Assembly (NCBI GenBank): GCA_963677485.1
Contig: OY781964.1
Coordinates: 4,288,001-4,352,000 of the forward strand
Direction of reading: 5' to 3'
Length of the DNA: 64,000 nt
DNA from: Armatimonadota bacterium
Lineage (GTDB): Bacteria > Armatimonadota > HRBIN16
Made by a program: the position numbers and the translations under genes. Shown piece by piece: positions 1,977 through 18,871 of the stretch (positions are counted from its first letter, which is position 1; the number at the start of each line of letters is the position of its first letter). The notes under the pieces were generated by a model. The model was not told the DNA's origin. It saw nothing but the letters and a program-made list of their open reading frames with translations, and did no database searches.

Positions 1977-3050
1977 CTATGAAGCTATCGGCAGCACAAA
2001 CCTTACGGTAGTGCCTACACCTACTGCGCTATCAATCCATATGCGACCACCCATGCTCTTCACAGCCAGTCGGCAGAAGGTGAGTCCTAAGCCTGAACTA
2101 GCCGCACCCGCTTTGCGTGCATCCATCTGTGTGTATTTGTCGAACACTTTACCAGCCCATTCGGAGTCAATGCCTGGTCCTTTGTCACTGACCGAAATCT
2201 GAGCTGTCCCATCAAGAAGCTGCTCTGCCAGGATGTCCACCACACTGTTTTCTGGGCTGAATTTCAAGGCATTGCTCAGCAGATTGACCATGACACGGGT
2301 GAGGATGGCAGGATCAGCCATGACGTGGAGGGGTTCAGCAGGCGCATGAAACTGGATATCGACACGGTTCTGTTTTGACCACAAAGCCACTTGTTGTTGA
2401 GCATCTTCAAAAATATCAGTGATAAGCACAGCCTTGGGCTGCAGTTTAAGTTTTTTTGATTCCAGCCTGGGTAAATCCAGCAGGGAGTTGATCATCCACA
2501 TAAGCCTGTCGGCCGAGATGAGGGAGATGTTCACCATCTCCTTGCCGGTGTCATCAAGCTGGTCACCCGAAATCATCTCAAGCGTCAGCAAGCCGGTCTT
2601 TACATTAGTCAAAGGTGATCTGAGGTCATGAACGATGAACTGTGTTAACTCGTCTTGACGCCGTCTGCTGTATAAAATGAGCGAGATTCCATAGGTAAGG
2701 AGAAGGAACACAACCAGCTTCAGAATCATGTCTACCCCGACGATGCTCAGCCGGGCCAGTGCCTGGTTTGCATAGTCCGAGTGCGTCGCTAACGCTGAGG
2801 CTGCGAATAACTCGGCGGCCGTCCACGCAAAAGCACTAAATATGGAAAGAATAAACGCATAGTATTCATGGCTTAATACGGCTGCTGTGACGATGGGAAT
2901 AAAATAGAATACCATCAAGTCAACATCGGTATCATAGTCAACTATGGCCAGCACGAGCATCAGCAGGAAGCTGAAGACGCCCCAGAACACGCGTGCGGCT
3001 TTAGTTTGAAGATAGAGATGTTGTTGTATGGTCTTGAGTGTGTTTTTCAT
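1977..3050 (-). CDS. Membrane sensor histidine kinase (HisKA + HATPase_c)
   Basis: About four TM helices, H-box HDLRSPLT, N-box NLLSNALKFS, G1 DKGPGI, G2 GLGL. Confidence 0.92.
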   Translation of the reverse strand: MKNTLKTIQQHLYLQTKAARVFWGVFSFLLMLVLAIVDYDTDVDLMVFYFIPIVTAAVLSHEYYAFILSIFSAFAWTAAELFAASALATHSDYANQALARLSIVGVDMILKLVVFLLLTYGISLILYSRRRQDELTQFIVHDLRSPLTNVKTGLLTLEMISGDQLDDTGKEMVNISLISADRLMWMINSLLDLPRLESKKLKLQPKAVLITDIFEDAQQQVALWSKQNRVDIQFHAPAEPLHVMADPAILTRVMVNLLSNALKFSPENSVVDILAEQLLDGTAQISVSDKGPGIDSEWAGKVFDKYTQMDARKAGAASSGLGLTFCRLAVKSMGGRIWIDSAVGVGTTVRFVLPIAS

Positions 3051-3125
3051 TACATTTTATTGTAAGCGCAATATCGGCTGGTGTATAGGGTAAAACACTC
3101 TTTGAGGTAAAATTAGATTAGGAGA

Positions 3126-3707
3126 GTGATGACCATGTCAGATGATCTATCTATGATGTTTACCGGGGTATCGAAAAATTACCCGGTGGTTTTATACGGT
3201 AACGAGATTCTACGGCAACCGACCGTCCAGGTTCGCAAGGTCGACAGTGAGATACGCCTGCTCGTCAGCCGAATGAGGACGATCATGACCGAAGCCAACG
3301 GCATCGGCCTGGCAGCACCGCAAGTCGGTGTATCGAAAAGTGTGATTGTGTATATGGACTTCATGCAGGGAGACGAGCCAGTAGTAAAGGCTCTAGTCAA
3401 TCCTGAAGTCGTGAAATTCAGCGAAGAGACAGAGCCGTTTGATGAGGGCTGCCTGAGCATGCCTGAACTGCGCGCGACGGTGATCCGGCCCAGCGAAGTG
3501 TGGGTGAAGGGTATGGACATGACCGGACGCACCATCCGCGTGAAGGCTCATGGCCTGACCGCGAGGGTGCTCCAGCACGAAATCGACCACTTGTCTGGTA
3601 AGCTGTTCATCGACATTGCCGACCCCAACAGCTTCTATTGGCTTGGTGACGAAGCAGAACCGGAAGAAGAGCAAGAACTAGAGCAAGAGCAAGCAGCAGT
3701 GTTATAG
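3126..3707 (+). CDS. def: Peptide deformylase
   Basis: GIGLAAPQVG, EGCLS and QHEIDHL motifs. Directly upstream of fmt. Confidence 0.97.
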   Translation: MMTMSDDLSMMFTGVSKNYPVVLYGNEILRQPTVQVRKVDSEIRLLVSRMRTIMTEANGIGLAAPQVGVSKSVIVYMDFMQGDEPVVKALVNPEVVKFSEETEPFDEGCLSMPELRATVIRPSEVWVKGMDMTGRTIRVKAHGLTARVLQHEIDHLSGKLFIDIADPNSFYWLGDEAEPEEEQELEQEQAAVL

Positions 3708-4672
3708 TGGCTAGAATCATCTTCTTTGGGTCCACCGGCTTCTCAGTGCCCAGTCTGCAACAACTAGTGCAGGCTGGGCATCACTTGGTTGCAGTAGTCA
3801 CACAACCCGACCGTCCCTCCGGCAGGGGACTTAAGATGCAGGCCACACCGGTCAAACACCTGGCGGAGGAGCTTGGCATCACGGTGTTCCAGCCTGAGCG
3901 GTGCCGATCCAAACGCTTTATCGATCAGATGGAATCACTGGAACCTGATCTGCTGGTGACGGCGGCCTTTGGTCAGATACTGCCCCAGCGCTTGCTTGAT
4001 GCAGCACGATCAGGATACGCGCTCAATGTGCATGCCTCACTGCTGCCCAAATACCGCGGCGCTGCACCAATACATCGGGCGATCATGGATGGTGAGGTGG
4101 AAACCGGTGTGGGCGTCATGCAGATGGTAGCAAAGCTGGATGCCGGCGATGTGTATGCGAGTGTCTCACGGCCGATTTTGCCGGAATATGACGTGCACAT
4201 TCTAGAATCACTGCTTGCCGATGATGGTGCAAAGCTGCTGGTGCAGACGATTGATGAGCTGTTGGCCGGACGAGCCAACCCCATCCCACAGGATGAGAAT
4301 CTGGTGACATATGCTCAGATGATGACTCGTCAGGACGCCTGCATCGACTGGCAACAGTCCGCAACACGCTGTTTTGGGCGTATGCGGGCGATGTCACCCA
4401 AACCAGGTGCGGAGTTCGCATGGAACGGCAAAGGCGTCAAACTGTGGCAGGCAGCCGTGATGCCTGAGACGAGTTCAGAACCCGCCGGGACGGTGGTGGC
4501 GGTGAATAAACAGAGCATCTGCGTGGCATGCGGTGAAGGATGCCTGGAGATATTCGAAGTGCAGCCGGCAGGTAAAGCACGCATGGGTGTGATATCTTGG
4601 ATGAACGGATCAAGGGTGAAGCAGGGCGATCTGCTGCAATCTCACCCCGATGTTGGAAAGGCGGACAGTTAA
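3707..4672 (+). CDS. fmt: Methionyl-tRNA formyltransferase
   Basis: VVTQPDRPSGRG, NVHASLLPKYRGAAPI and LDAGD motifs. Confidence 0.97.
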   Translation: MARIIFFGSTGFSVPSLQQLVQAGHHLVAVVTQPDRPSGRGLKMQATPVKHLAEELGITVFQPERCRSKRFIDQMESLEPDLLVTAAFGQILPQRLLDAARSGYALNVHASLLPKYRGAAPIHRAIMDGEVETGVGVMQMVAKLDAGDVYASVSRPILPEYDVHILESLLADDGAKLLVQTIDELLAGRANPIPQDENLVTYAQMMTRQDACIDWQQSATRCFGRMRAMSPKPGAEFAWNGKGVKLWQAAVMPETSSEPAGTVVAVNKQSICVACGEGCLEIFEVQPAGKARMGVISWMNGSRVKQGDLLQSHPDVGKADS

Positions 4673-6021
4673 TGAGCACCGAAACGCAGAGCACGGACCA
4701 TCAGACATTTCACGTGCCATATGAATATTACAAGTTAGATAATGGTCTGCGGGTGGTGCTTTCACCCGACCATCTGGTACCTGTGGTGGCGAACGTGGTT
4801 CTTTACGATGTGGGGGCGCGCAATGAGCAGTTAGGACGCACTGGCTTCGCCCATCTATTCGAACACATGATGTTCCAAGGTTCCGAGAACGTGCCGAAGG
4901 GTGAGTTCTTCAAGTGCGTGGAAGATAACGGCGGACTGATGAACGGCATGACCAGCAATGACTTTACGATTTATTATGAAGTGATGCCGGGGAACCAGAT
5001 GGAGCTGGCTTTATGGCTAGAGGCTGACCGTATGCGCGCACTGCAGGTAGATCAGGACAACCTGGACAACCAGCGTGATGTGGTGAAAGAGGAAAAGCGT
5101 CTCCGTTACGACAACCAACCATATGTGTATGCCATCTACGAACTGCTGATGGACAAGTTGTTCAAGAACTTCGCCAACGCGCACACCGTGATTGGCAGCA
5201 TGGATGACCTGAACGCGGCCACCCTTGCGGATGTTCAGAGTTTCTGGCGCACCTATTATGCCGTGAACAACGCCATCTTGGTTCTTGCCGGTGATTTCGA
5301 TGTCGACGAAGCCAAGCTGATGATAGAGAAGCACTTCGGCAGCATGAAGCCGGAAGTGCGGCCAGCAAACCCGGATTTCTCAGAACCAGAACGCGCTGAG
5401 CCGGAGAGCATGGACTACACTGACCCGCTGGCCGCGGTACCGGTGCTGGCGAGTGCGGTGATCGTGTGCGATGCGCTTAGTGATGATGCGCCTGCGCTCA
5501 CGCTGCTGGAACGGCTGCTGCTGGAGGGCGAGAATGCCCGGCTGCACCAACGGTTGGTGAAGAACGACCAGAGCTGTGCCTCCATTGGCGGTGGGTATGA
5601 TATGCGTCGCGGCCCTGGGTGCTTCCAGTTCATCGCGATGCTGAACCCTGGGGCGGAGTTCGGCACGGTGCTGGAGGCCATCCAGCAGGAGTTGCAACTT
5701 ATTGCGCAGCACGGCGTGAAACCTGAAGAGCTGGTGCGTATGAAGACGGCCGCCATGGCCCAGCGCTTTAATAGCGGCTTCGCGGGCACCGGCGGGCTTC
5801 AGACACCTCAAGGACGCGCATTTGAGCTGGGACTTCATACCCTCATCTCAAGCGATCCTGGGTTGATAAATACGGATATCCAACGCCTGTATGGCGTGAC
5901 GTCTGAACAGATTCAAGCGGTGGCGGCGAAATACTTCCAACCGGATAAGTATGTCACGGTGAATGTGCTGCCTGGTGCCGGTATGACTGACTCACCCGAG
6001 GAGGATGAAAATGACCGTTAA
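4672..6021 (+). CDS. M16B zinc peptidase, catalytic subunit
   Basis: GFAHLFEHMMFQGS (inverted HxxEH), LWLEADRM, VVKEEKR. Start taken at ATG 4672, which overlaps the fmt stop (TAATG). Confidence 0.92.
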   Translation: MSTETQSTDHQTFHVPYEYYKLDNGLRVVLSPDHLVPVVANVVLYDVGARNEQLGRTGFAHLFEHMMFQGSENVPKGEFFKCVEDNGGLMNGMTSNDFTIYYEVMPGNQMELALWLEADRMRALQVDQDNLDNQRDVVKEEKRLRYDNQPYVYAIYELLMDKLFKNFANAHTVIGSMDDLNAATLADVQSFWRTYYAVNNAILVLAGDFDVDEAKLMIEKHFGSMKPEVRPANPDFSEPERAEPESMDYTDPLAAVPVLASAVIVCDALSDDAPALTLLERLLLEGENARLHQRLVKNDQSCASIGGGYDMRRGPGCFQFIAMLNPGAEFGTVLEAIQQELQLIAQHGVKPEELVRMKTAAMAQRFNSGFAGTGGLQTPQGRAFELGLHTLISSDPGLINTDIQRLYGVTSEQIQAVAAKYFQPDKYVTVNVLPGAGMTDSPEEDENDR

Positions 6022-8065: not shown

Positions 8066-8737
8066 TTGATGCCTGACCATCTCATGAGTTCGTGGCTGGC
8101 CAAAGTGAAGACCGACCTGCAGTTTGTCAAGTTTATAAACGCGGTCGGTTGCTGCACGGCGAAACCAATCCCCGCATGGCCGTTGTTTCCCAACCAGCAG
8201 CAGGCACTGGCTAGCATGGGGCTGTTTGATGTATGGTTCTGGAAAGATGATCTTCACACCGAAAAGAAGCTCTACTACACCCGGCTGTTTGGCGGGAAAC
8301 CTGGCTTTATCTCCAACGAAATGCTGCCCGCGTTTGTGGCCCGCTACGGCTGCGTGTTTGATGAGCTGCTGTTCCGTGGCGAACTGCCTGCTGGTGCCGT
8401 CGAAATATACCAATGTATCGAGCGTCATGGTCCGATCCCTATCCGTGAGTTGAACGCTCAGTTGAGTGCTGAGGCAAAGACCGGTGCTGATACCTATCTG
8501 CACTTACTCGACCGTAAGTTCCTCATCACCAAAAGCGGCATCACCGGCCGCACACGCGGCACCTATGGCTACATTTGGGACACTACCGAACGCTGGATGC
8601 CTGATGTGCTGCAGAGTGCCGGTAAACTGGGCAGTGAGCAGGCCATGCAGATCATCCGGGATCACATGCTGGCTTACGGCATCACACCGGAATGCAGCTT
8701 CTGGAAGCGTGTGATGGGCGAGACACCTTCACGGTAA
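8066..8737 (+). CDS. AlkZ-related / winged-helix protein
   Basis: VWFWKDDL..EKKLYYTRLFGGKPGFIS resembles AlkZ-related proteins. The C-terminal half is wHTH-like (IYQCIERHGPIPIREL...). Confidence 0.55.
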   Translation: MMPDHLMSSWLAKVKTDLQFVKFINAVGCCTAKPIPAWPLFPNQQQALASMGLFDVWFWKDDLHTEKKLYYTRLFGGKPGFISNEMLPAFVARYGCVFDELLFRGELPAGAVEIYQCIERHGPIPIRELNAQLSAEAKTGADTYLHLLDRKFLITKSGITGRTRGTYGYIWDTTERWMPDVLQSAGKLGSEQAMQIIRDHMLAYGITPECSFWKRVMGETPSR

Positions 8738-8776: not shown

Positions 8777-8805
8777 TTGACACTAAAGATAAATTCATGT
8801 AGTAT
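8777..8805 (+). promoter_or_regulatory. Sigma70-type promoter for the 8882-15249 operon
   Basis: TTGACA (8777-8782), 17 bp spacer, TAGTAT (8800-8805). Confidence 0.7.
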
Positions 8806-8881
8806 TATGTCTAGTGTTGGTATCGTCACCGCTCAGTACAACGCAACGGGGTAGTGGCTCCTAAATCCATCGGCAGAGGGT

Positions 8882-9955
8882 ATGAGTATGGCACAGAGTG
8901 AAGAGATTTTCATAGAGCAGATCAATGAGTTCTGCTCCATAGTAGACCGAAGCGAAACCAAGATCATCGGTATCGGCGTTCCGATATCCTTCGAGAGCCG
9001 CGGATATGGATATGGCGGCTACCAGTTCGCTAGTTGCGACTTGAATGACTACTTCTTTGCACGTAAAGTCATCCCTGAGGGTGAGGTGGCACTGCTGGCG
9101 AAGGTGCTCGGAGTCTGCTTGTCTGACACGGAGATCATCAGTGCCAGATACGATGTGGAGGGTGACGGAAACTACAAGGTGGTTGTTGGTTTTGTGGTCG
9201 ACAGCTTTGATAACATTCCAGAGTACCTCCCCGAGTATACCGTCACTTTGAGCGTACCGGCCTGCCGTTACGCTAAGATGCTGATCAACGAGAAGAAGCA
9301 GGAAGGCCGTATCGGTTACGACGAACGCATGCATGCCGACGAGTATTTCATTGGTGAGTTCCGCAAAGAGACCCCGTATGTGTATAACCAGGCGAGTTAT
9401 CCATTGAACACCTACGATGAAACAGGCGACATGCTGACCAAGTATGAGCCTGTGAAGATTCCGGCTGACGAGATCGAACGGTATGATTCTTTCCGGTTCA
9501 AAGTCGTCACCTTGCCTGAGATGAAGATCGCCTGCAGCATTTCTGTGCCCGGTTCGGGGGAATTTGTCATTTTCAAATACTTCGCCGTGGAGCAGCAAGT
9601 GTTCACCACGGACGCCGCGAGATACTATCTTCATGACTACTATGGCTTTCCCATCAGCACAGATGATGGGGGCTATAATAGTTGCTTTGGCACGCGTGTC
9701 AGCAGCTTTGAGGCCCTGCCGGAATGTGTGGAACGGATCACGCTGCCTGGAGGCATATATCTGCATATCACGCAACTTGAAGTCAACGGTGACAACCCAT
9801 CCATGCCATATGATGTCGCCTTCAACCATATTGACCGTCTGTTTTTGTCATCCCACCCACAGTATCAGCGTGACTTCAGCAAGCATGTCATCGCCAGATT
9901 CCGGCAGGCGAATTGCGCCTCGGTGTTTGTGCCCCTGCTGCTGGCTTGTAAATAA
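8882..9955 (+). CDS. Protein with two tandem GyrI-like effector-binding domains, no HTH
   Basis: Two units of the GyrI pattern: IVDRSETKIIG...VTLSVPACRYA...YEPV and VVTLPEMKIA...ERITLPGGIY...VFVPL. Confidence 0.7.
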   Translation: MSMAQSEEIFIEQINEFCSIVDRSETKIIGIGVPISFESRGYGYGGYQFASCDLNDYFFARKVIPEGEVALLAKVLGVCLSDTEIISARYDVEGDGNYKVVVGFVVDSFDNIPEYLPEYTVTLSVPACRYAKMLINEKKQEGRIGYDERMHADEYFIGEFRKETPYVYNQASYPLNTYDETGDMLTKYEPVKIPADEIERYDSFRFKVVTLPEMKIACSISVPGSGEFVIFKYFAVEQQVFTTDAARYYLHDYYGFPISTDDGGYNSCFGTRVSSFEALPECVERITLPGGIYLHITQLEVNGDNPSMPYDVAFNHIDRLFLSSHPQYQRDFSKHVIARFRQANCASVFVPLLLACK

Positions 9956-10094
9956 CTGATCGTAGGGGCGTCCCTTGTGGACGCCCTAAAACATGAACTA
10001 TCGAAGGAACAACGATTAGGGCGCCCACAAGGGACGCCCCTACGACAGTATCAGTTACAGCATGGGCTGCCTTGCAAGCACGGGCAAGTGCTTG
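9954..10094. repeat. GTAG-type REP doublet (REPIN-like), copy 1 of a 141-bp dispersed repeat
   Basis: 28-bp arms CGTAGGGGCGTCCCTTGTGGACGCCCTA (9961-9988) and inverted copy (10017-10044), one mismatch. Colinear with 18731-18871. Confidence 0.9.
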
Positions 10095-10127
10095 ATGAGA
10101 ACAAGTGACCAAAAGGAGATACCAGAA

Positions 10128-11165
10128 ATGAAATCATACCCTGTGATATCCAGTGCTGACGGCAAATACATCGACGGTATCCCTGTGCTGCGCTGGGGTA
10201 ATTGGCAGGACTGCACATATGGCGGGGCTGTGAAGTTGGTGATGGACGCTTTGGGCGTCAACGTGAGTTATGAGCAGATCATGGGCTATTCCGGCGTGTG
10301 TTACCGTATGGCTATGGCTGAGAACTGGGACCCAAGCTCCGGCATGCCACAGATTGGGCGCGATGTGGAAGCAGCTCTGAACAACGCGATTGGATTTGCC
10401 CCATATTGTATAGCTGATGCTGATCTACGCGATCAGCATGTAGTAAAATGCGTCGATGCCGGTGTACCTGTACTCGGTTGTGGGCTGAGAGGGGCACCTG
10501 AGTGGGGCGTGATTACGGGTTACGCTGGTAATGGCCACAACTTCTTTGGCCGGACCTACTTCGATGACGAAGGAGCGGATGCCAGTGAGACATATACCAA
10601 TAATCATTACTATCTGGCGGACCTGTATCCCGGCCAATTTCCCGAAAATCTGCTCAGGTTCTACGACAAACGATGCACACCGGTATCATCACGTGAAGCC
10701 TTGAAGGCCTCACTAATCGCCTGCTTAGAACTGTTTGAGCAGGCACCCAACAACTACCTGTTCGGTTACGATGCATACCAAGTGTTGATATCGGGTTTCG
10801 AATTAGATGATGATCAATATGACGAATTTGGTAATAACGGCGAACACCACCTCGGCACGCTGTTTGATGCCCGCAGATCCGCGTCTACCTACCTAAAGCA
10901 GAGTGCCATGTTGCTGGAGGAGCCCAATCGAAGCCGCATACTGCAGGTAGCCGACTTGTATTCTTCTATTGTCCGTGTTCTCCAGGCTGTTGTGCCATAT
11001 GAAGAAACATCCGCGGCGTTTGGTGGTCAAGAGACGTGGCCATGGGATCAACCACTGCGTATGCAGATAGCCGACGCGCTACGCCATGTGGTGCAGATTG
11101 AAAAAGAGCTGCGGTTAGTGGTGAAGGAGATATTATGCGAATGGGAGGACGGTCATGATCACTAA
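10128..11165 (+). CDS. BtrH_N / papain-like fold hypothetical protein
   Basis: SD AAGGAG before ATG 10128; the 10062 start lies inside the repeat. Motifs VSYEQIMGYSGVCYR, CVDAGVPVL and WGVITGY. Paralogous to 12392-13369. Confidence 0.6.
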   Translation: MKSYPVISSADGKYIDGIPVLRWGNWQDCTYGGAVKLVMDALGVNVSYEQIMGYSGVCYRMAMAENWDPSSGMPQIGRDVEAALNNAIGFAPYCIADADLRDQHVVKCVDAGVPVLGCGLRGAPEWGVITGYAGNGHNFFGRTYFDDEGADASETYTNNHYYLADLYPGQFPENLLRFYDKRCTPVSSREALKASLIACLELFEQAPNNYLFGYDAYQVLISGFELDDDQYDEFGNNGEHHLGTLFDARRSASTYLKQSAMLLEEPNRSRILQVADLYSSIVRVLQAVVPYEETSAAFGGQETWPWDQPLRMQIADALRHVVQIEKELRLVVKEILCEWEDGHDH

Positions 11166-11835
11166 AATCAATCTGCTTCACTATCTGAGTGAAGCGACAT
11201 ATAAGCGGATCTGTGAGAGGTTGGGTTTGAACTCTGGTGACAATATCATCGGAAACAACTTCGTGGAATACCCGGGCGGTGTGATCACAAAGGTCCATCT
11301 ATTCAATATCAACTACAAGAGCTTCGGCCGTATCTGGTTCATGCGTGTTGATGTGGATTTCAGGCTTCTGGGCTGCAACAACGAGCAGTTTCCCGAGGCT
11401 CTGCGCACCGCCTGCATGGGTCTGTTCGGTCAAGAGGCGATGGACGACTATCCTGTATATGATCAGATCAACTGCGACTACATCGAATACTCCGCCCTGG
11501 CAGACGTCAGAAACACTGATGAAGCCATCAATAGGCTTCTGCAGGGCAAGTGCGTTGCCGACCAGCTTGACCGGGATCGCTGGGCGAACTACGAGAAGCC
11601 TCACAGCACCATCGCTTTGTATATCTGCAAAGAAGACGACCAGCGCCTCAGACTTCTGGCGAAATGCCACGGAACGGCTATGAAGAGGCGAATCAAGGAC
11701 GCTTCACTCCATCGGGCAACTGGAATCATGTCGGCGGTTGCCGTGAACGCGCAGACGGAACAGAGTGTCTTTGAGTTCCTGTGGCGGCAGTATTTTACAC
11801 CATCTGGATTTGATGATATCAACCTGACTTACTAA
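11155..11835 (+). CDS. Hypothetical protein
   Basis: 226-aa ORF with SD GGGAGG, overlapping the upstream stop and co-oriented within the operon. Confidence 0.7.
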   Translation: MITKINLLHYLSEATYKRICERLGLNSGDNIIGNNFVEYPGGVITKVHLFNINYKSFGRIWFMRVDVDFRLLGCNNEQFPEALRTACMGLFGQEAMDDYPVYDQINCDYIEYSALADVRNTDEAINRLLQGKCVADQLDRDRWANYEKPHSTIALYICKEDDQRLRLLAKCHGTAMKRRIKDASLHRATGIMSAVAVNAQTEQSVFEFLWRQYFTPSGFDDINLTY

Positions 11836-11862
11836 TCTACCGAGAGGAATCATATAACAACA

Positions 11863-12336
11863 ATGTCATATCTCGACACGAAGCTACCGCTTGAGGCACT
11901 GCTTCAGAATTTGCCTGATGAGAAGAGGGCCAGTCTTGTCTGGCTGCTGGACTATATGAAAGCCCAGCGCATATCACCACACTGGTATGCCACCAATTCG
12001 ATGAACGTAAAGTTCAAAAACACGATCGTCTTTCGCTTTTGTATACGCCCGGAAGGGGACTGGGACATCAACCTGACAGTGGCCAGAGAGGACGACCTGG
12101 ATAGTACCCTACGCTCGCTCTCACAGGAGATGCAAGATTTCTATTTCAAGCATCTGAGGCCATGCCGACAATGCAACCCCACACACGGCAAGGGTCGGCA
12201 GATCACTATCCTCGGGCAGGAATATTACATCTGTGCCGCCCCCGAAATACAGATGCGCAACCCTTCAATTGATGACGTGCGGTATCTACAGCAGTTTGTA
12301 GATGTCAGGATGAACAACATCAAGTCCTTCAAATAG
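11863..12336 (+). CDS. Hypothetical protein with Cys motif (DUF3788/YdhG-like)
   Basis: CRQCNPTH...ITILGQEYYIC. Resembles the N-terminal domain of 13369-15249 (CEYC...C...ITFNGHSKKLC). Confidence 0.6.
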   Translation: MSYLDTKLPLEALLQNLPDEKRASLVWLLDYMKAQRISPHWYATNSMNVKFKNTIVFRFCIRPEGDWDINLTVAREDDLDSTLRSLSQEMQDFYFKHLRPCRQCNPTHGKGRQITILGQEYYICAAPEIQMRNPSIDDVRYLQQFVDVRMNNIKSFK

Positions 12337-12391
12337 AGGTTGTTACTGACCCAGCCGGAACTATATAAATCACAGAAATCGGAGAGTTAAC

Positions 12392-13369
12392 ATGCTTAGG
12401 AATGTGATCACAGGATTACCGAAGGTTGACTGGTCGGACGGCTCCCGCCAGAACGAGTTTGTGAACAGCGTGGTTTCTGCGCACAGTGCTCTTGGAGAGA
12501 CACTGGACTACGACACAGTATGCGCGGTATCGGGGAGTGCCTTTCGCACATCATTTTCGGTCGAAGGTTGGAACCACGGCAGCTACCACGTGGTGCATAC
12601 CCCGATTATCATAGAGCATACCTTCAATATGCTGGGATACTATGTCACGCAGCACATCCGAGGTCAGTATCAAGATGACAAAGCCTTGATCACTAGTAGC
12701 ATCGACAGGGGAGTGCCTGTCATCACGCTGGAGGGAGTGGTCAACTGCTCCGATGCCTGTGTGATCGCCGGTTATGACCAGGAAGGCGACGTGCTGCTGG
12801 GATACAGTCCTTTTATGTATATCCCCGATGATCACAACGAACCTCACGATGTGACAGGTTACTTCCGAAAGTCGAACTGGCACGATGGTTTCGCAGCTCA
12901 AGGCAGCTTGCTGCGTATCATCATAATCGATGGGAAGATTGAACAACCTGCGCCTGACGATGTGTTTCGTGAGACGCTGAAATTGGCAGTGCAGCTCATA
13001 GAGGCTCCCTCCCTGGTGGAAGGTCAGCATAATGGTCTTGCGGCGCACCAGGCGTTTGCGGATGCGTTGATGACACGTCAGTGGCAAGACGGCTTAGAGC
13101 CGTACCTTAACGTGATGTGCAACTACAAGCAATACCTCGACAGACGGTATGCCGCCGCCTATTTACGCATGAACGGCAGAGATGATTTTGCCAGTTACTA
13201 TGACAAGATCGCCGATCTCTGCGTGGAGATGGGCCAGATGATCCCTCAGGACTTTTCGGCACTGGATGTGTTCAGCGATAAGACGAAACTCAGGTTGTAT
13301 GCGGACCTGTTAAATCGCATTGGGGAGATTGAATCCAAATTCGTTAATAGGGTTAAGGAGTCATTATAA
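12392..13369 (+). CDS. BtrH_N / papain-like fold hypothetical protein
   Basis: LDYDTVCAVSGSAFR, SIDRGVPVI, CVIAGYD, GLAAHQAF. Paralog of 10128-11165. Confidence 0.6.
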   Translation: MLRNVITGLPKVDWSDGSRQNEFVNSVVSAHSALGETLDYDTVCAVSGSAFRTSFSVEGWNHGSYHVVHTPIIIEHTFNMLGYYVTQHIRGQYQDDKALITSSIDRGVPVITLEGVVNCSDACVIAGYDQEGDVLLGYSPFMYIPDDHNEPHDVTGYFRKSNWHDGFAAQGSLLRIIIIDGKIEQPAPDDVFRETLKLAVQLIEAPSLVEGQHNGLAAHQAFADALMTRQWQDGLEPYLNVMCNYKQYLDRRYAAAYLRMNGRDDFASYYDKIADLCVEMGQMIPQDFSALDVFSDKTKLRLYADLLNRIGEIESKFVNRVKESL

Positions 13370-15249
13370 TGAACGGCAACATCATCATTGAGCAGTTACT
13401 TCAGGATCTGCCAGAAAGTGTCCGAAACCTCGTCACGCCTTTACACGATGTCGCCGTCAGCCATTGCTGCCAATACCGAGTCGACACGGCAGAGGATGGG
13501 GTTCACATTGTGTACTCAGCGAGGTCGTTCGCAATTCACATCATGGGCGAACAATTGTCGTTCAGTGGGGAATATGACCTTCGTGCTTTTATGAACCTCT
13601 ACCATCATACGGAGGATCAAACTGCGAAAAAGCTGATGTTTGATGCGGCTGCTGTTTGTGAATATTGCATAGACGATAAATGCACTACGTTCCTGATGGC
13701 GAAGCAGCGTACGATCACCTTTAATGGTCATAGCAAAAAGTTGTGTGCCCCATGGCGGCATCATCTGCACATGAATGTGACGGTTGATGAGCTGGATTCA
13801 TGCCGTGCAATTGCCGTTATGATGTTTGAATATGTTTATCCGCATATGCATGTAGAATTATTCACCCAGAATGAGGTCACATATACGCTAATTGAGAAGG
13901 GCGTTTTCTACATCGTGGGCTACAAGACGGTTCATAACCAGTTCACCGTTTCTGACGAACAGTTTGTGGCTTCCATACTGAAAGCTGATATGAACGGTAG
14001 ACGCAAGATAGATGAGGTTCTGGAGGCCACTGGGCAAGCCGACGACGGTCATTACGTTGGTGCGACGGATAACTTCACCAATGGTGTTTTGTATGATTAT
14101 GTGTTTGGTGTGATATGCGGATCTGCACCTAAAGAGCTGCCAGAGGGAATGGTCTGCCGCAAGCTGCGATGCGGAACGTGGGCGGTCTACAACAGCAGCG
14201 CACACGACTATAAGAGCATATGGCGGCACTTCACCGACCATTTCTACGATGCTGAGAAAATGGGCTACGACACCGCCCGAATCCCATTTGAGTATTACGA
14301 CCGAGATGGACGATACTCAGATGTACATATTCCTGTAGACCCAGAAATGGGAAGAGATAGCGCGAAAACCTGGGTGCTAGTTCATACTCCGAATATCAAA
14401 ATGGCGGGATTCACGAACTATGTAGAAAATGACCACCCACTGCATAATGAATACAATTTCGACTGGTCATGTAAACTCAAAGAACTGTTTCCATATGCCG
14501 ATAAGCACATCAACACGAGCATCCATGCATTTTTTGGCAAGCCGATGCAGTGTATGAACGGCGTGGAAATTGGTGACCTGACACCAGTCCCTGATGGTGT
14601 GGAAATATACGACCTTAAGGGCGGCTACTGGCATGTGGAGGGCAAACAGCATTTCAACGGCGGGAGCTGCGGCTGGAACTTCGATAGCTTCTACGACAGC
14701 CTTCTGACTCGAGACACATTAGCGCATCCTAGAGCTTTCAACGAGTATGAATACCGTGCGCGCGGTGGATATACTGAGATAGTCGCCCCTGTCCGTGTGC
14801 GAGGCGAGCAGAAATTCGAGCTGGTGGAACTGGCGCCGCAAAATGTGATCGGGAAATTAGAAGCTCCACCTCACAGCGTAGTTTCTGATGCCGAAAAGCT
14901 GGCGTTCTATGAGTTGCCAGCGAATATGGACAAAGGTTCGTATATGATCGGGTATACACTGACGAAGGCGAACAAGATGCTGTTCTATGATAAACCACTC
15001 GTCAAAGGTGTATTAGCTAATATGGATGCGGTCATACCAGATGGTTACCAGTCATATACCCTTCAAGGTGGACGTTTCCTCAAAATCACCGAGAGTCTGC
15101 CGCTTGGGGAACCGGGATGGGAGATTGAATGGGTCAATAGCCCAGACTTCAGCATCAAGACCGGGCATGAGCCTGACTTTAGTCGGCAATTCATCATACG
15201 CCAGTATGGCTACGGTTGCACATACGAGTTTTACGTACCAGTACAATAA
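13369..15249 (+). CDS. Multidomain protein: Cys-rich N-terminal domain plus about three GyrI-like domains
   Basis: Three units with LPEGMVCRKLRCGTWAVY...HIPV, VPDGVEIYDLKGGYW...VAPV and IPDGYQSYTLQGGRF...FYVPV. Start overlaps the upstream stop (TAATG). Confidence 0.7.
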   Translation: MNGNIIIEQLLQDLPESVRNLVTPLHDVAVSHCCQYRVDTAEDGVHIVYSARSFAIHIMGEQLSFSGEYDLRAFMNLYHHTEDQTAKKLMFDAAAVCEYCIDDKCTTFLMAKQRTITFNGHSKKLCAPWRHHLHMNVTVDELDSCRAIAVMMFEYVYPHMHVELFTQNEVTYTLIEKGVFYIVGYKTVHNQFTVSDEQFVASILKADMNGRRKIDEVLEATGQADDGHYVGATDNFTNGVLYDYVFGVICGSAPKELPEGMVCRKLRCGTWAVYNSSAHDYKSIWRHFTDHFYDAEKMGYDTARIPFEYYDRDGRYSDVHIPVDPEMGRDSAKTWVLVHTPNIKMAGFTNYVENDHPLHNEYNFDWSCKLKELFPYADKHINTSIHAFFGKPMQCMNGVEIGDLTPVPDGVEIYDLKGGYWHVEGKQHFNGGSCGWNFDSFYDSLLTRDTLAHPRAFNEYEYRARGGYTEIVAPVRVRGEQKFELVELAPQNVIGKLEAPPHSVVSDAEKLAFYELPANMDKGSYMIGYTLTKANKMLFYDKPLVKGVLANMDAVIPDGYQSYTLQGGRFLKITESLPLGEPGWEIEWVNSPDFSIKTGHEPDFSRQFIIRQYGYGCTYEFYVPVQ

Positions 15250-15253
15250 GAGT

Positions 15254-15281
15254 GGTGGCGGGCGGTGTTATGCCTGCCATC
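15254..15281 (+). terminator. Stem-loop closing the GyrI operon
   Basis: GGTGGCGGGC / GCCTGCCATC 10-bp stem with G-U pairs just after the stop. The U-tract is weak. Confidence 0.5.
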
Positions 15282-18730: not shown

Positions 18731-18871
18731 AACTGGTCGTAGGGGCGTCCCTTGTGGGCGCCCTGAATCCAAAATTATCGTATGAACAACGATTAGGGCG
18801 CCCACAAGGGACGCCCCTACGGCAGTATCAGTTACAGCCTAGGCTGCCGTGCATGCACGGGCGGGTGCTTG
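18731..18871. repeat. GTAG-type REP doublet (REPIN-like), copy 2
   Basis: CGTAGGGGCGTCCCTTGTGGGCGCCCT...AGGGCGCCCACAAGGGACGCCCCTACG plus a conserved 3' flank. Constant offset of 8777 from copy 1. Confidence 0.9.

Follow-up and report, generated by a model that had tools for sequence, protein, structure and literature searches.

We analyzed a 64,000-nucleotide stretch of DNA from an Armatimonadota bacterium (contig OY781964.1, positions 4,288,001 to 4,352,000; hereafter the window) and focused on an island of six open reading frames (ORFs) at its positions 8882-15249, mainly on ORF6 and on the BtrH/CtaG-like proteins ORF2 and ORF5. All six ORFs lie on the forward strand: ORF1 (8882-9955, 357 residues), ORF2 (10128-11165, 345 residues), ORF3 (11155-11835, 226 residues), ORF4 (11863-12336, 157 residues), ORF5 (12392-13369, 325 residues), and ORF6 (13369-15249, 626 residues). 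An alternative start of ORF2 at 10062 would give 367 residues, but the start at 10128 is likelier, because AAGGAG precedes it by 8 nt and the database form of the protein has 345 residues. The junctions from ORF2 to ORF6 are tight, with an 11-nt overlap of ORF2 and ORF3, spacings of 27 nt and 55 nt, and a 1-nt overlap of the ORF5 stop with the ORF6 start; the gap between ORF1 and ORF2 is 172 nt. Housekeeping-type genes flank the island, namely two M16 peptidases, a GT2 glycosyltransferase, and an AlkZ-related gene upstream, and the E1alpha, E1beta, and E2 genes of a 2-oxoacid dehydrogenase downstream. The G+C content was 0.45-0.53 in the island, 0.54-0.59 upstream, and 0.51-0.59 downstream. 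The original prediction, made from the sequence alone, had described six co-oriented, closely spaced ORFs set between core genes, and this description was borne out.

Standard searches revealed little about the six proteins. None matched NCBIfam, none matched the anti-phage defence collection PADLOC-DB at E≤0.1, and PHROGs returned only weak families of unknown function. Pfam at E≤0.1 found no family on ORF2, ORF4, ORF5, or ORF6, and PDB sequence searches with ORF1, ORF2, ORF5, and ORF6 gave nothing below E 0.2. At the same Pfam threshold, no helix-turn-helix (HTH) domain was detected in the six proteins apart from Sigma70_r4_2, which matched 22 residues of ORF3 without significance (E 0.091), and no signal peptide or transmembrane segment was visible on reading the six sequences, in agreement with the earlier remark that recognizable features of these kinds were missing.

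GyrI-like domains of ORF6 and ORF1

The ORF6 family is rare, with 45 clusters at E≤0.001 among 1.84 billion representatives. A structural model of ORF6 built from a 37-row alignment had a predicted local distance difference test score (pLDDT) of 93.5 and a predicted template modelling score (pTM) of 0.88, and it was divided into four domains. The first GyrI-like domain (residues 168-325; 13870-14343) gave VIA Z scores of 14.3 with BrlR (145 residues aligned, 21-23% identity), 12.3 with Cass2, 12.2 with SAV2435, 11.6 with STM3175, 11.5 with SbmC/GyrI, and 11.3 with CtaZ (7zhd). In all, 43 GyrI-like PDB entries matched ORF6 at Z 8 or more, and the GyrI-like hydrolase Lin2189 was matched at Z 9.4. 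The third GyrI-like domain (residues 480-626; 14806-15249) matched the multidrug-binding domain of BmrR (2bow, Z 8.7, 112 residues aligned). The region between them (residues 333-477; 14365-14799) is beta-rich with one helix and aligns with the second half of ORF1. It is probably a degenerate GyrI-like domain, as judged from its secondary structure and its homology to ORF1, with no direct structural match listed.

The N-terminal domain of ORF6 (residues 1-160; 13369-13848) has an alpha/beta fold, and the invariant residues assigned to it are C34, C97, C100, C105, C126, H26, and H161. Its matches, all in the range that the tool calls 'middling', were a YdhG-like protein (9t2w, Z 7.2, 107 of 123 residues aligned), an integron cassette protein (3imo, Z 6.6), and frataxins (Z 5.5-5.8); the C-terminal, DNA-binding domain of MotA followed weakly at Z 5.1-5.4. 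From the invariant residues, it is reasonable to suppose that the domain carries a metal site, either Zn or Fe-S. The model leaves room for a DNA-binding role as well.

ORF1 is related to ORF6 by BLASTP (E 6e-5), and residues 84-326 of ORF1 aligned with residues 228-454 of the ORF6 family in hhalign (85.6%, E 5.6e-6, 218 columns). We infer from these sequence comparisons that ORF1 comprises two GyrI-like-type domains and is a shorter paralog of the GyrI-like part of ORF6. Pfam Cass2 covered residues 85-138 of ORF1 at E 1.2e-5 (26.0 bits, below the 27-bit cut-off), and the ORF6 homolog P0044 passed the cut-off with 31.6 bits. Searched in all six frames with Cass2 at E≤0.01, the genome yielded two other genes, neither of which was ORF1 or ORF6. 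About five GyrI-like domains had been predicted for the island. The structural comparison shows two of them, both in ORF6, and the other three, namely the middle domain of ORF6 and the two domains of ORF1, are putative.

According to PMC9545259, GyrI-like proteins act by ligand binding (CtaZ), hydrolysis (YtkR7, C10R6, Lin2189), or gyrase inhibition (GyrI), or serve as effector domains (BmrR, Rob), and CtaZ is a cytoplasmic closthioamide-binding self-resistance protein that confers resistance by confining its ligand. ORF6 resembles CtaZ in that its domain 1 has the GyrI-like fold and bears no DNA-binding head. However, CtaZ is a single 150-residue domain encoded beside a biosynthetic cluster, whereas ORF6 has three GyrI-like-type domains behind a Cys-rich N-terminal domain, domain 1 shares only 6% sequence identity with CtaZ, and no biosynthetic cluster lies near the island. 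Domains 1 and 3 likewise resemble the effector domains of BmrR, BrlR, EcmrR, and Rob. In those regulators an HTH of the MerR or AraC type occupies the N-terminus, where ORF6 instead has the Cys-rich domain with the middling YdhG and frataxin matches (best Z 7.2), in which Pfam recognizes no HTH.

BtrH/CtaG-like proteins ORF2 and ORF5 and their fusions

The AlphaFold2 model of ORF2 had a pLDDT of 91.7 and a pTM of 0.91. Residues 16-343 of the model matched AziU2-U3 (VIA Z 16.8, 280 residues aligned), CtaG (Z 14.8), and CcbD (Z 14.5), with approximately 265-280 residues aligned, and Foldseek gave a match at E 9.7e-5. No other structure was matched strongly. Unrelated helical bundles reached Z values of at most 9.6, and C39 peptidase domains matched the N-terminal domain at Z of about 7. 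As modelled, ORF2 is a two-part BtrH/CtaG/AziU-like protein with a papain-like N-terminal domain and a helical C-terminal domain. ORF5 is a distant paralog of ORF2 (BLASTP, 24% identity over 137 residues, E 3e-5). The two had been proposed as paralogous papain-like proteins, a proposal upheld by this match and by the fold of ORF2. In PMC12865890, the CtaG group is described as having a papain-like N-terminal domain, a helix-rich C-terminal domain, and a Cys11-His128-Asp144 triad, and AziU2/U3 as structurally similar but functionally unrelated to the CtaG-type ligases.

We examined whether the triad is present in the ORF2 family. ORF2 has 43 relatives among 5.8 billion proteins, and the alignment also had 43 rows, consisting of 41 relatives together with ORF2 and ORF5; P0001, whose sequence equals that of ORF2, and the 251-residue fragment P0025 were omitted. 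No His was invariant or at least 90% conserved in these rows. On the strand where the His was expected, P124-E125-W126 was present in 41-42 of the 43 rows (W126 in 42), followed at position 127 by G, T, D, S, N, or C and never by His; this position was assigned from secondary structure and from the WHVVTGY motif of a protein encoded near another ORF6-like gene (locus L029, see below), not by coordinate superposition. The Cys at the nucleophile position, C29, lies at the N-terminus of the first long helix and was present in 33 of the 43 rows, including ORF2, and D146 was present in 42. In ORF5 both the Cys and the His are missing, and the Cys-His-Asp triad was incomplete in every row. Strong conservation was observed at D28-C29, E125, R142, and D146. 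The proteins had been called 'dead'. Since ORF2 retains the Cys at the nucleophile position, this word holds only in the sense that the canonical His is missing, and it does not describe an empty site.

This branch escaped profile searches. Pfam BtrH_N (PF14399) matched neither ORF2 nor ORF5 at E≤0.1 and nothing in the whole genome at E≤0.01; no Pfam model covered the ORF2-like domain in any of the 43 rows at E≤0.01, and a PDB profile search with the ORF2 alignment reached no BtrH-like chain. ORF2 is like CtaG, BtrH, CcbD, and AziU3-U2 in its two-part architecture and in its nucleophile-position Cys, and its family is unlike the CtaG/BtrH/CcbD ligases in being His-less and without a BtrH_N match; moreover, no carrier-protein gene lies near ORF2. 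The family also differs in context: instead of lying within biosynthetic clusters, its members are joined to sigma, XRE, MerR, or GNAT domains.

ECF (extracytoplasmic function) sigma factors with regulatory C-terminal extensions exist. Pfam analysis of the 43 rows revealed an XRE-type HTH in 13, Sigma70_r2 together with r4_2 in two, GNAT in two, and Sigma70_r4 in three. The two sigma proteins, P0011 and P0020, carry Sigma70_r2 and r4_2 and run on into the ORF2-like domain; they resemble ECF sigma factors with a C-terminal extension, unlike the island proteins, which have no sigma part. In the three fusion sequences that we read, the extra domain was N-terminal, the ORF2-like domain was C-terminal, and no membrane segment was obvious. 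The sigma- and GNAT-fused homologs were 42-48% identical to ORF2 and the XRE fusions 28-34%. We met no described case of a BtrH-like fold as an ECF sigma extension, though no dedicated search was made, and the literature searched held no description of BtrH-like domains fused to regulators; the tables of CtaG homologs in PMC12865890 might list relatives.

The genome that contains the window encodes a further fusion, an 869-residue MerR protein (L018, 6343-8952 on the reverse strand; approximately 3.640-3.643 Mb on G000:C1), with an HTH at residues 11-75, an uncharacterized stretch of about 460 residues, and a full BtrH-like domain at residues 535-865 (hhalign 96.5%, E 9e-10, 306 columns). Its middle region was considered as a GyrI-like region and rejected (hhalign against the ORF6 family, 0.2%). 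The earlier suggestion that homologs might be found fused to regulator heads was thus confirmed, and because the same domain sits elsewhere on sigma, XRE, and MerR heads, the stand-alone proteins of the island can be described as 'headless' versions.

Two more paralogs were seen in the same genome. One is a stand-alone BtrH-like protein whose gene adjoins that of a peptidyl-tRNA hydrolase. The other is an ORF5-like protein (L017, 5748-7259; approximately 4.4197-4.4213 Mb on G000:C1; 27% identity over 281 residues, E 5e-18) whose longest ORF has an N-terminal hydrophobic stretch, so some members of the fold family may be exported or membrane-anchored.

Gene neighbourhoods and interpretation of the island

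Among 41 related genomes, including the window's own (G000), ORF6 was detected in three, all of one genus; ORF2-like sequences were present in 10 of the 41. In the sister genome, G001, all six genes occupy the same position and show 78-92% identity. ORF3 homologs occurred at eight loci in the species-genome collection, and the neighbours were unrelated at the three that were examined (MFS at one; NUDIX, Dus, and a tRNA methyltransferase at another; GNAT, GrpB, and ABC at the third).

A metagenome scan with a 10-row ORF6 alignment revealed eight ORF6-like loci, of which five were examined; L031 was taken as a duplicate of L030 because the two matches agree in length and identity, and L032 and L034 were too short. 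At L027 (49% identity to ORF6), the next gene encodes a BtrH-like protein (hhalign 98.4%, E 4e-15, 311 columns) that is 34% identical to ORF5. At L030 (39%), two BtrH-like genes (97.4% and 95.4%) come next, followed by a GNAT gene, and at L033 (37%) the next gene is BtrH-like (97.4%). At these three loci a BtrH-like gene directly follows the ORF6-like gene, an order reversed relative to the window. The unit that recurs across distant loci is therefore the adjacency of an ORF6-like gene and a BtrH-like gene, not a six-gene system. GNAT genes were seen beside ORF6-like or ORF3-like genes at L024, L028, L029, and L030, and MFS and ABC transporter genes were also found near such genes. A complex prediction for ORF6 and ORF5 scored 0.00 against a mark of 0.32; it gave no verdict and was used neither way.

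Two of the examined loci showed peculiarities. At L029, the ORF6-like gene is separated from two weak BtrH_N-like genes by an ORF (3840-5219) in which a MerR HTH is fused to pentapeptide repeats; proteins with such repeats are known to protect gyrase. At L028, the ORF6-like match (2643-4510) is split over two overlapping ORFs (2574-4220 and 4184-5083), which suggests a frameshift or an assembly error.

Because ORF6 is confined to one genus and the island has a lower G+C content, we regard the island as accessory. Our favored reading, held tentatively and with somewhat less than even confidence, is that this genus-restricted island encodes 'headless' binding modules that bind or sequester xenobiotics, with the BtrH-like proteins as adaptors. 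Its core would be a two-gene pair, comprising the four-domain ORF6 and a BtrH/CtaG-fold protein, ORF5, of which ORF2 would be a second, diverged copy; both BtrH-like proteins would have lost the canonical Cys-His-Asp chemistry. By analogy with CtaZ, SbmC, BmrR, and BrlR, the GyrI-like domains would bind the ligand, and the His-less BtrH-like proteins would serve as binding or adaptor modules, as their fusion elsewhere to ECF sigma, XRE, MerR, and GNAT domains suggests. Most likely, the pair would trap or sense toxic small molecules inside the cytoplasm, in particular hydrophobic or planar ones, with antibiotics as one example among xenobiotics. Such a role is suggested by the GNAT, MerR, pentapeptide-repeat, and transporter genes that occur as neighbours, by the regulators that occur as fusion partners, and by the lack of biosynthetic genes. 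The original prediction had proposed a toxin or antibiotic sponge, or interchangeable sensors for a regulator or sigma factor encoded in trans; the domain content and the fusions support it in part and are compatible with a sponge, a sensor, or an enzyme. The analysis shows the folds, the loss of the His, the fusions, the synteny, and the repeated adjacency of ORF6-like and BtrH-like genes, whereas it is inferred that the proteins bind ligands, which class of ligand this would be, that they touch one another, and that their genes are transcribed together.

Several observations weigh against it. In G002, a third genome and of the same genus as G001, only ORF4 (67%) and ORF6 (62%) are present, between the AlkZ-related gene and E1alpha. 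Taken with the unrelated contexts of the ORF3 homologs and the palindrome that separates ORF1 from ORF2 (see below), this shows that the six genes are not one conserved system. At L028, no BtrH-like gene was found among the tested neighbours of the ORF6-like gene (radical SAM, GNAT, NAPRTase), and L029 offered two weak BtrH-like candidates (64% and 56%), with a GNAT gene upstream of the ORF6-like gene. The BtrH-like partners at L027 and L030 begin with hydrophobic segments in their longest ORFs. These might be signal peptides, in which case the partners and the ORF6-like protein would reside in different compartments. Pfam GyrI-like (PF06445) and Cass2 (PF14526) remained below cut-off on ORF1 and gave nothing on ORF6 at E≤0.1. 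The conserved D28-C29, E125, R142, and D146 of the ORF2 family would fit an unconventional active site as well as they fit a binding site. Finally, the capture or sensing account leaves ORF3 and ORF4 unexplained.

The fusions described above bring up a different role for the BtrH-like proteins. Partners that are fused in one genome frequently interact as separate proteins in another (Rosetta-stone logic), and the stand-alone proteins, ORF2 in particular, might control a sigma factor or HTH regulator in trans, as a detached anti-sigma factor or co-sensor, while the GyrI-like proteins recognize the ligand. This logic is strengthened by the MerR fusion in the same genome and by the fact that the homologs closest to ORF2 are those fused to sigma and GNAT domains. 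However, the seven flanking ORFs that were scanned include no regulator or sigma gene, and the sole HTH-like signal in the island is the non-significant Sigma70_r4_2 match of ORF3. We consider control in trans rather unlikely.

About equally improbable, in our view, is that the island encodes unconventional enzymes of a detoxification or modification pathway, in which ORF2 and ORF5 would use non-thiol or Cys-Glu/Asp chemistry and one or more of the GyrI-like domains would be hydrolases of the cyclopropanoid-hydrolase type. The conserved polar residues of the ORF2 family (D28, C29, E125, R142, and D146) would suit such chemistry, GNAT occurs both as a fusion partner and as a neighbour, and the hydrolase Lin2189 is among the matches of ORF6 at the level of the fold. 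The best structural match of ORF2 is AziU2-U3, which PMC12865890 treats as structurally similar but functionally unrelated to the ligases. On the other hand, ORF5 lacks both the Cys and the His, the scan of the seven flanking ORFs revealed no biosynthetic gene, whether for a carrier protein, adenylation, or anything else, and Pfam found no carrier or adenylation domain in the island itself. DNA-binding heads on 15 of the 43 family members are more typical of sensor domains.

Least probable of all is that the genes have no joint function and that unrelated same-strand orphans gathered in a variable hotspot, bordered by the AlkZ-related gene on one side and the 2-oxoacid dehydrogenase operon on the other: the presence of six genes in G000 and G001 and two in G002, the unrelated neighbours of ORF3 homologs, the lower G+C content, and a mobile element resembling a repetitive extragenic palindrome (REP) that is inserted in one genome only speak for it, but the starts and stops from ORF2 to ORF6 overlap or nearly abut, the island contains internal paralogs (ORF2/ORF5 and ORF1/ORF6), and the adjacency of ORF6-like and BtrH-like genes is repeated in distant loci.

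Returning to capture and sensing by the ORF6/BtrH-like pair, a bolder version can be put forward, although we think it improbable. The His-less BtrH/CtaG fold would be a new class of cytoplasmic sensor that gates the ECF sigma, XRE, or MerR regulator to which it is fused, and, when it stands alone, pairs with a multi-GyrI-like 'capture' protein of the ORF6 family bearing a metal cluster; together they would sense and sequester xenobiotics or genotoxins, with the AlkZ-related gene as a possible DNA-repair component of the same defence. None of the three folds is new. What appears new is the His-less branch of the BtrH/CtaG fold, invisible to Pfam and borne on transcription-factor heads, the rare combination of a putatively YdhG-like domain with three GyrI-like-type domains, and the recurrent pairing; we found no description of this branch, of the ORF6 architecture, or of their pairing in the literature searched. 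Antibiotic tolerance by way of GyrI-like proteins, whether they bind, hydrolyze, or regulate, is recognized but has been little charted. Should the pairing prove functional, ECF sigma, XRE, and MerR regulators would gain a new input domain and a new kind of small-molecule capture module would be defined, and both would help to annotate the many 'hypothetical' genes near resistance and detoxification loci.

ORF3, ORF4, and other features of the island

ORF3 is an orphan family that stands entirely outside the module scheme. Its 16 homologs all lack a Pfam domain and share the invariant motifs NCDYIEY and CHGTA.K. A resemblance to Phage_CRI/Rep_trans-like proteins in the ESM Atlas was not adopted, since recognition was low (1508) and the family shares were 14-37%; a PDB profile search with the ORF3 alignment reached no Rep-like chain.

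ORF4 has six family members with 57-100% identity, two of them from Armatimonadota-type named sources, and an invariant C101-x2-C104...H108...C124 pattern. Its neighbours in the ESM Atlas are unnamed clusters of 156-161 residues. The island had been thought to contain two copies of a Cys-rich domain, one in ORF4 and the other at the N-terminus of ORF6. Both do share an LLQxLPExxR start and a collinear C-x2/4-C...C-A-(A)-P motif, but the homology lacked statistical support (BLASTP E 0.072; hhalign 1% and 2.8%) and was not established.

The AlkZ-related gene (8066-8737; Pfam AlkZ-rel, E 1.4e-28) lies directly upstream of the island and is genus-restricted: at E≤1e-20, only three of the 18 family genomes have it. 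In G002 it also adjoins the ORF4 and ORF6 genes. AlkZ-type proteins are DNA glycosylases that act against genotoxic natural products, and a functional link with the GyrI-like genes might exist. Opposite ORF1, an antisense ORF of 322 residues (8861-9829, reverse strand) was listed mechanically and shows no sign of being a real gene.

One promoter and a terminal hairpin had been proposed for the six genes. A weak sigma-70-like motif, TTGACA-17-TAGTAT, with 10 of 12 matches is indeed present upstream of ORF1 (8777-8805, forward strand). Promoter-like sites in the region were not in excess, however, numbering 7 against 8.9±3.3 in shuffled sequences, and a palindrome interrupts the genes between ORF1 and ORF2. 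The hairpin also exists, with an 11-bp stem just 3' of the ORF6 stop (15254-15281, forward strand; -23.1 kcal/mol). It is modest (z -2.73, with 2 of 200 shuffles as good) and has no clean T-run, and the terminator scan made no call there.

The palindrome, which the original prediction had not mentioned, is an 82-bp element (9962-10043) with two inverted 19-mer arms (-65.3 kcal/mol, z -12) that resembles REP sequences and miniature inverted-repeat transposable elements (MITEs). Because it separates ORF1 from ORF2, a single six-gene transcript stays in doubt. In the sister genome, the gap between ORF1 and ORF2 is only approximately 37 bp and the palindrome is absent, so it is a recent insertion of a REP/MITE-like element in the window's genome. 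A second copy of the 82-bp palindrome lies in the window at 18739-18820. The 19-mer arm occurs 140 times in the 5.22-Mb genome (69 forward and 71 reverse), compared with once for the reversed control, and the arms mostly form convergent pairs approximately 63 bp apart.

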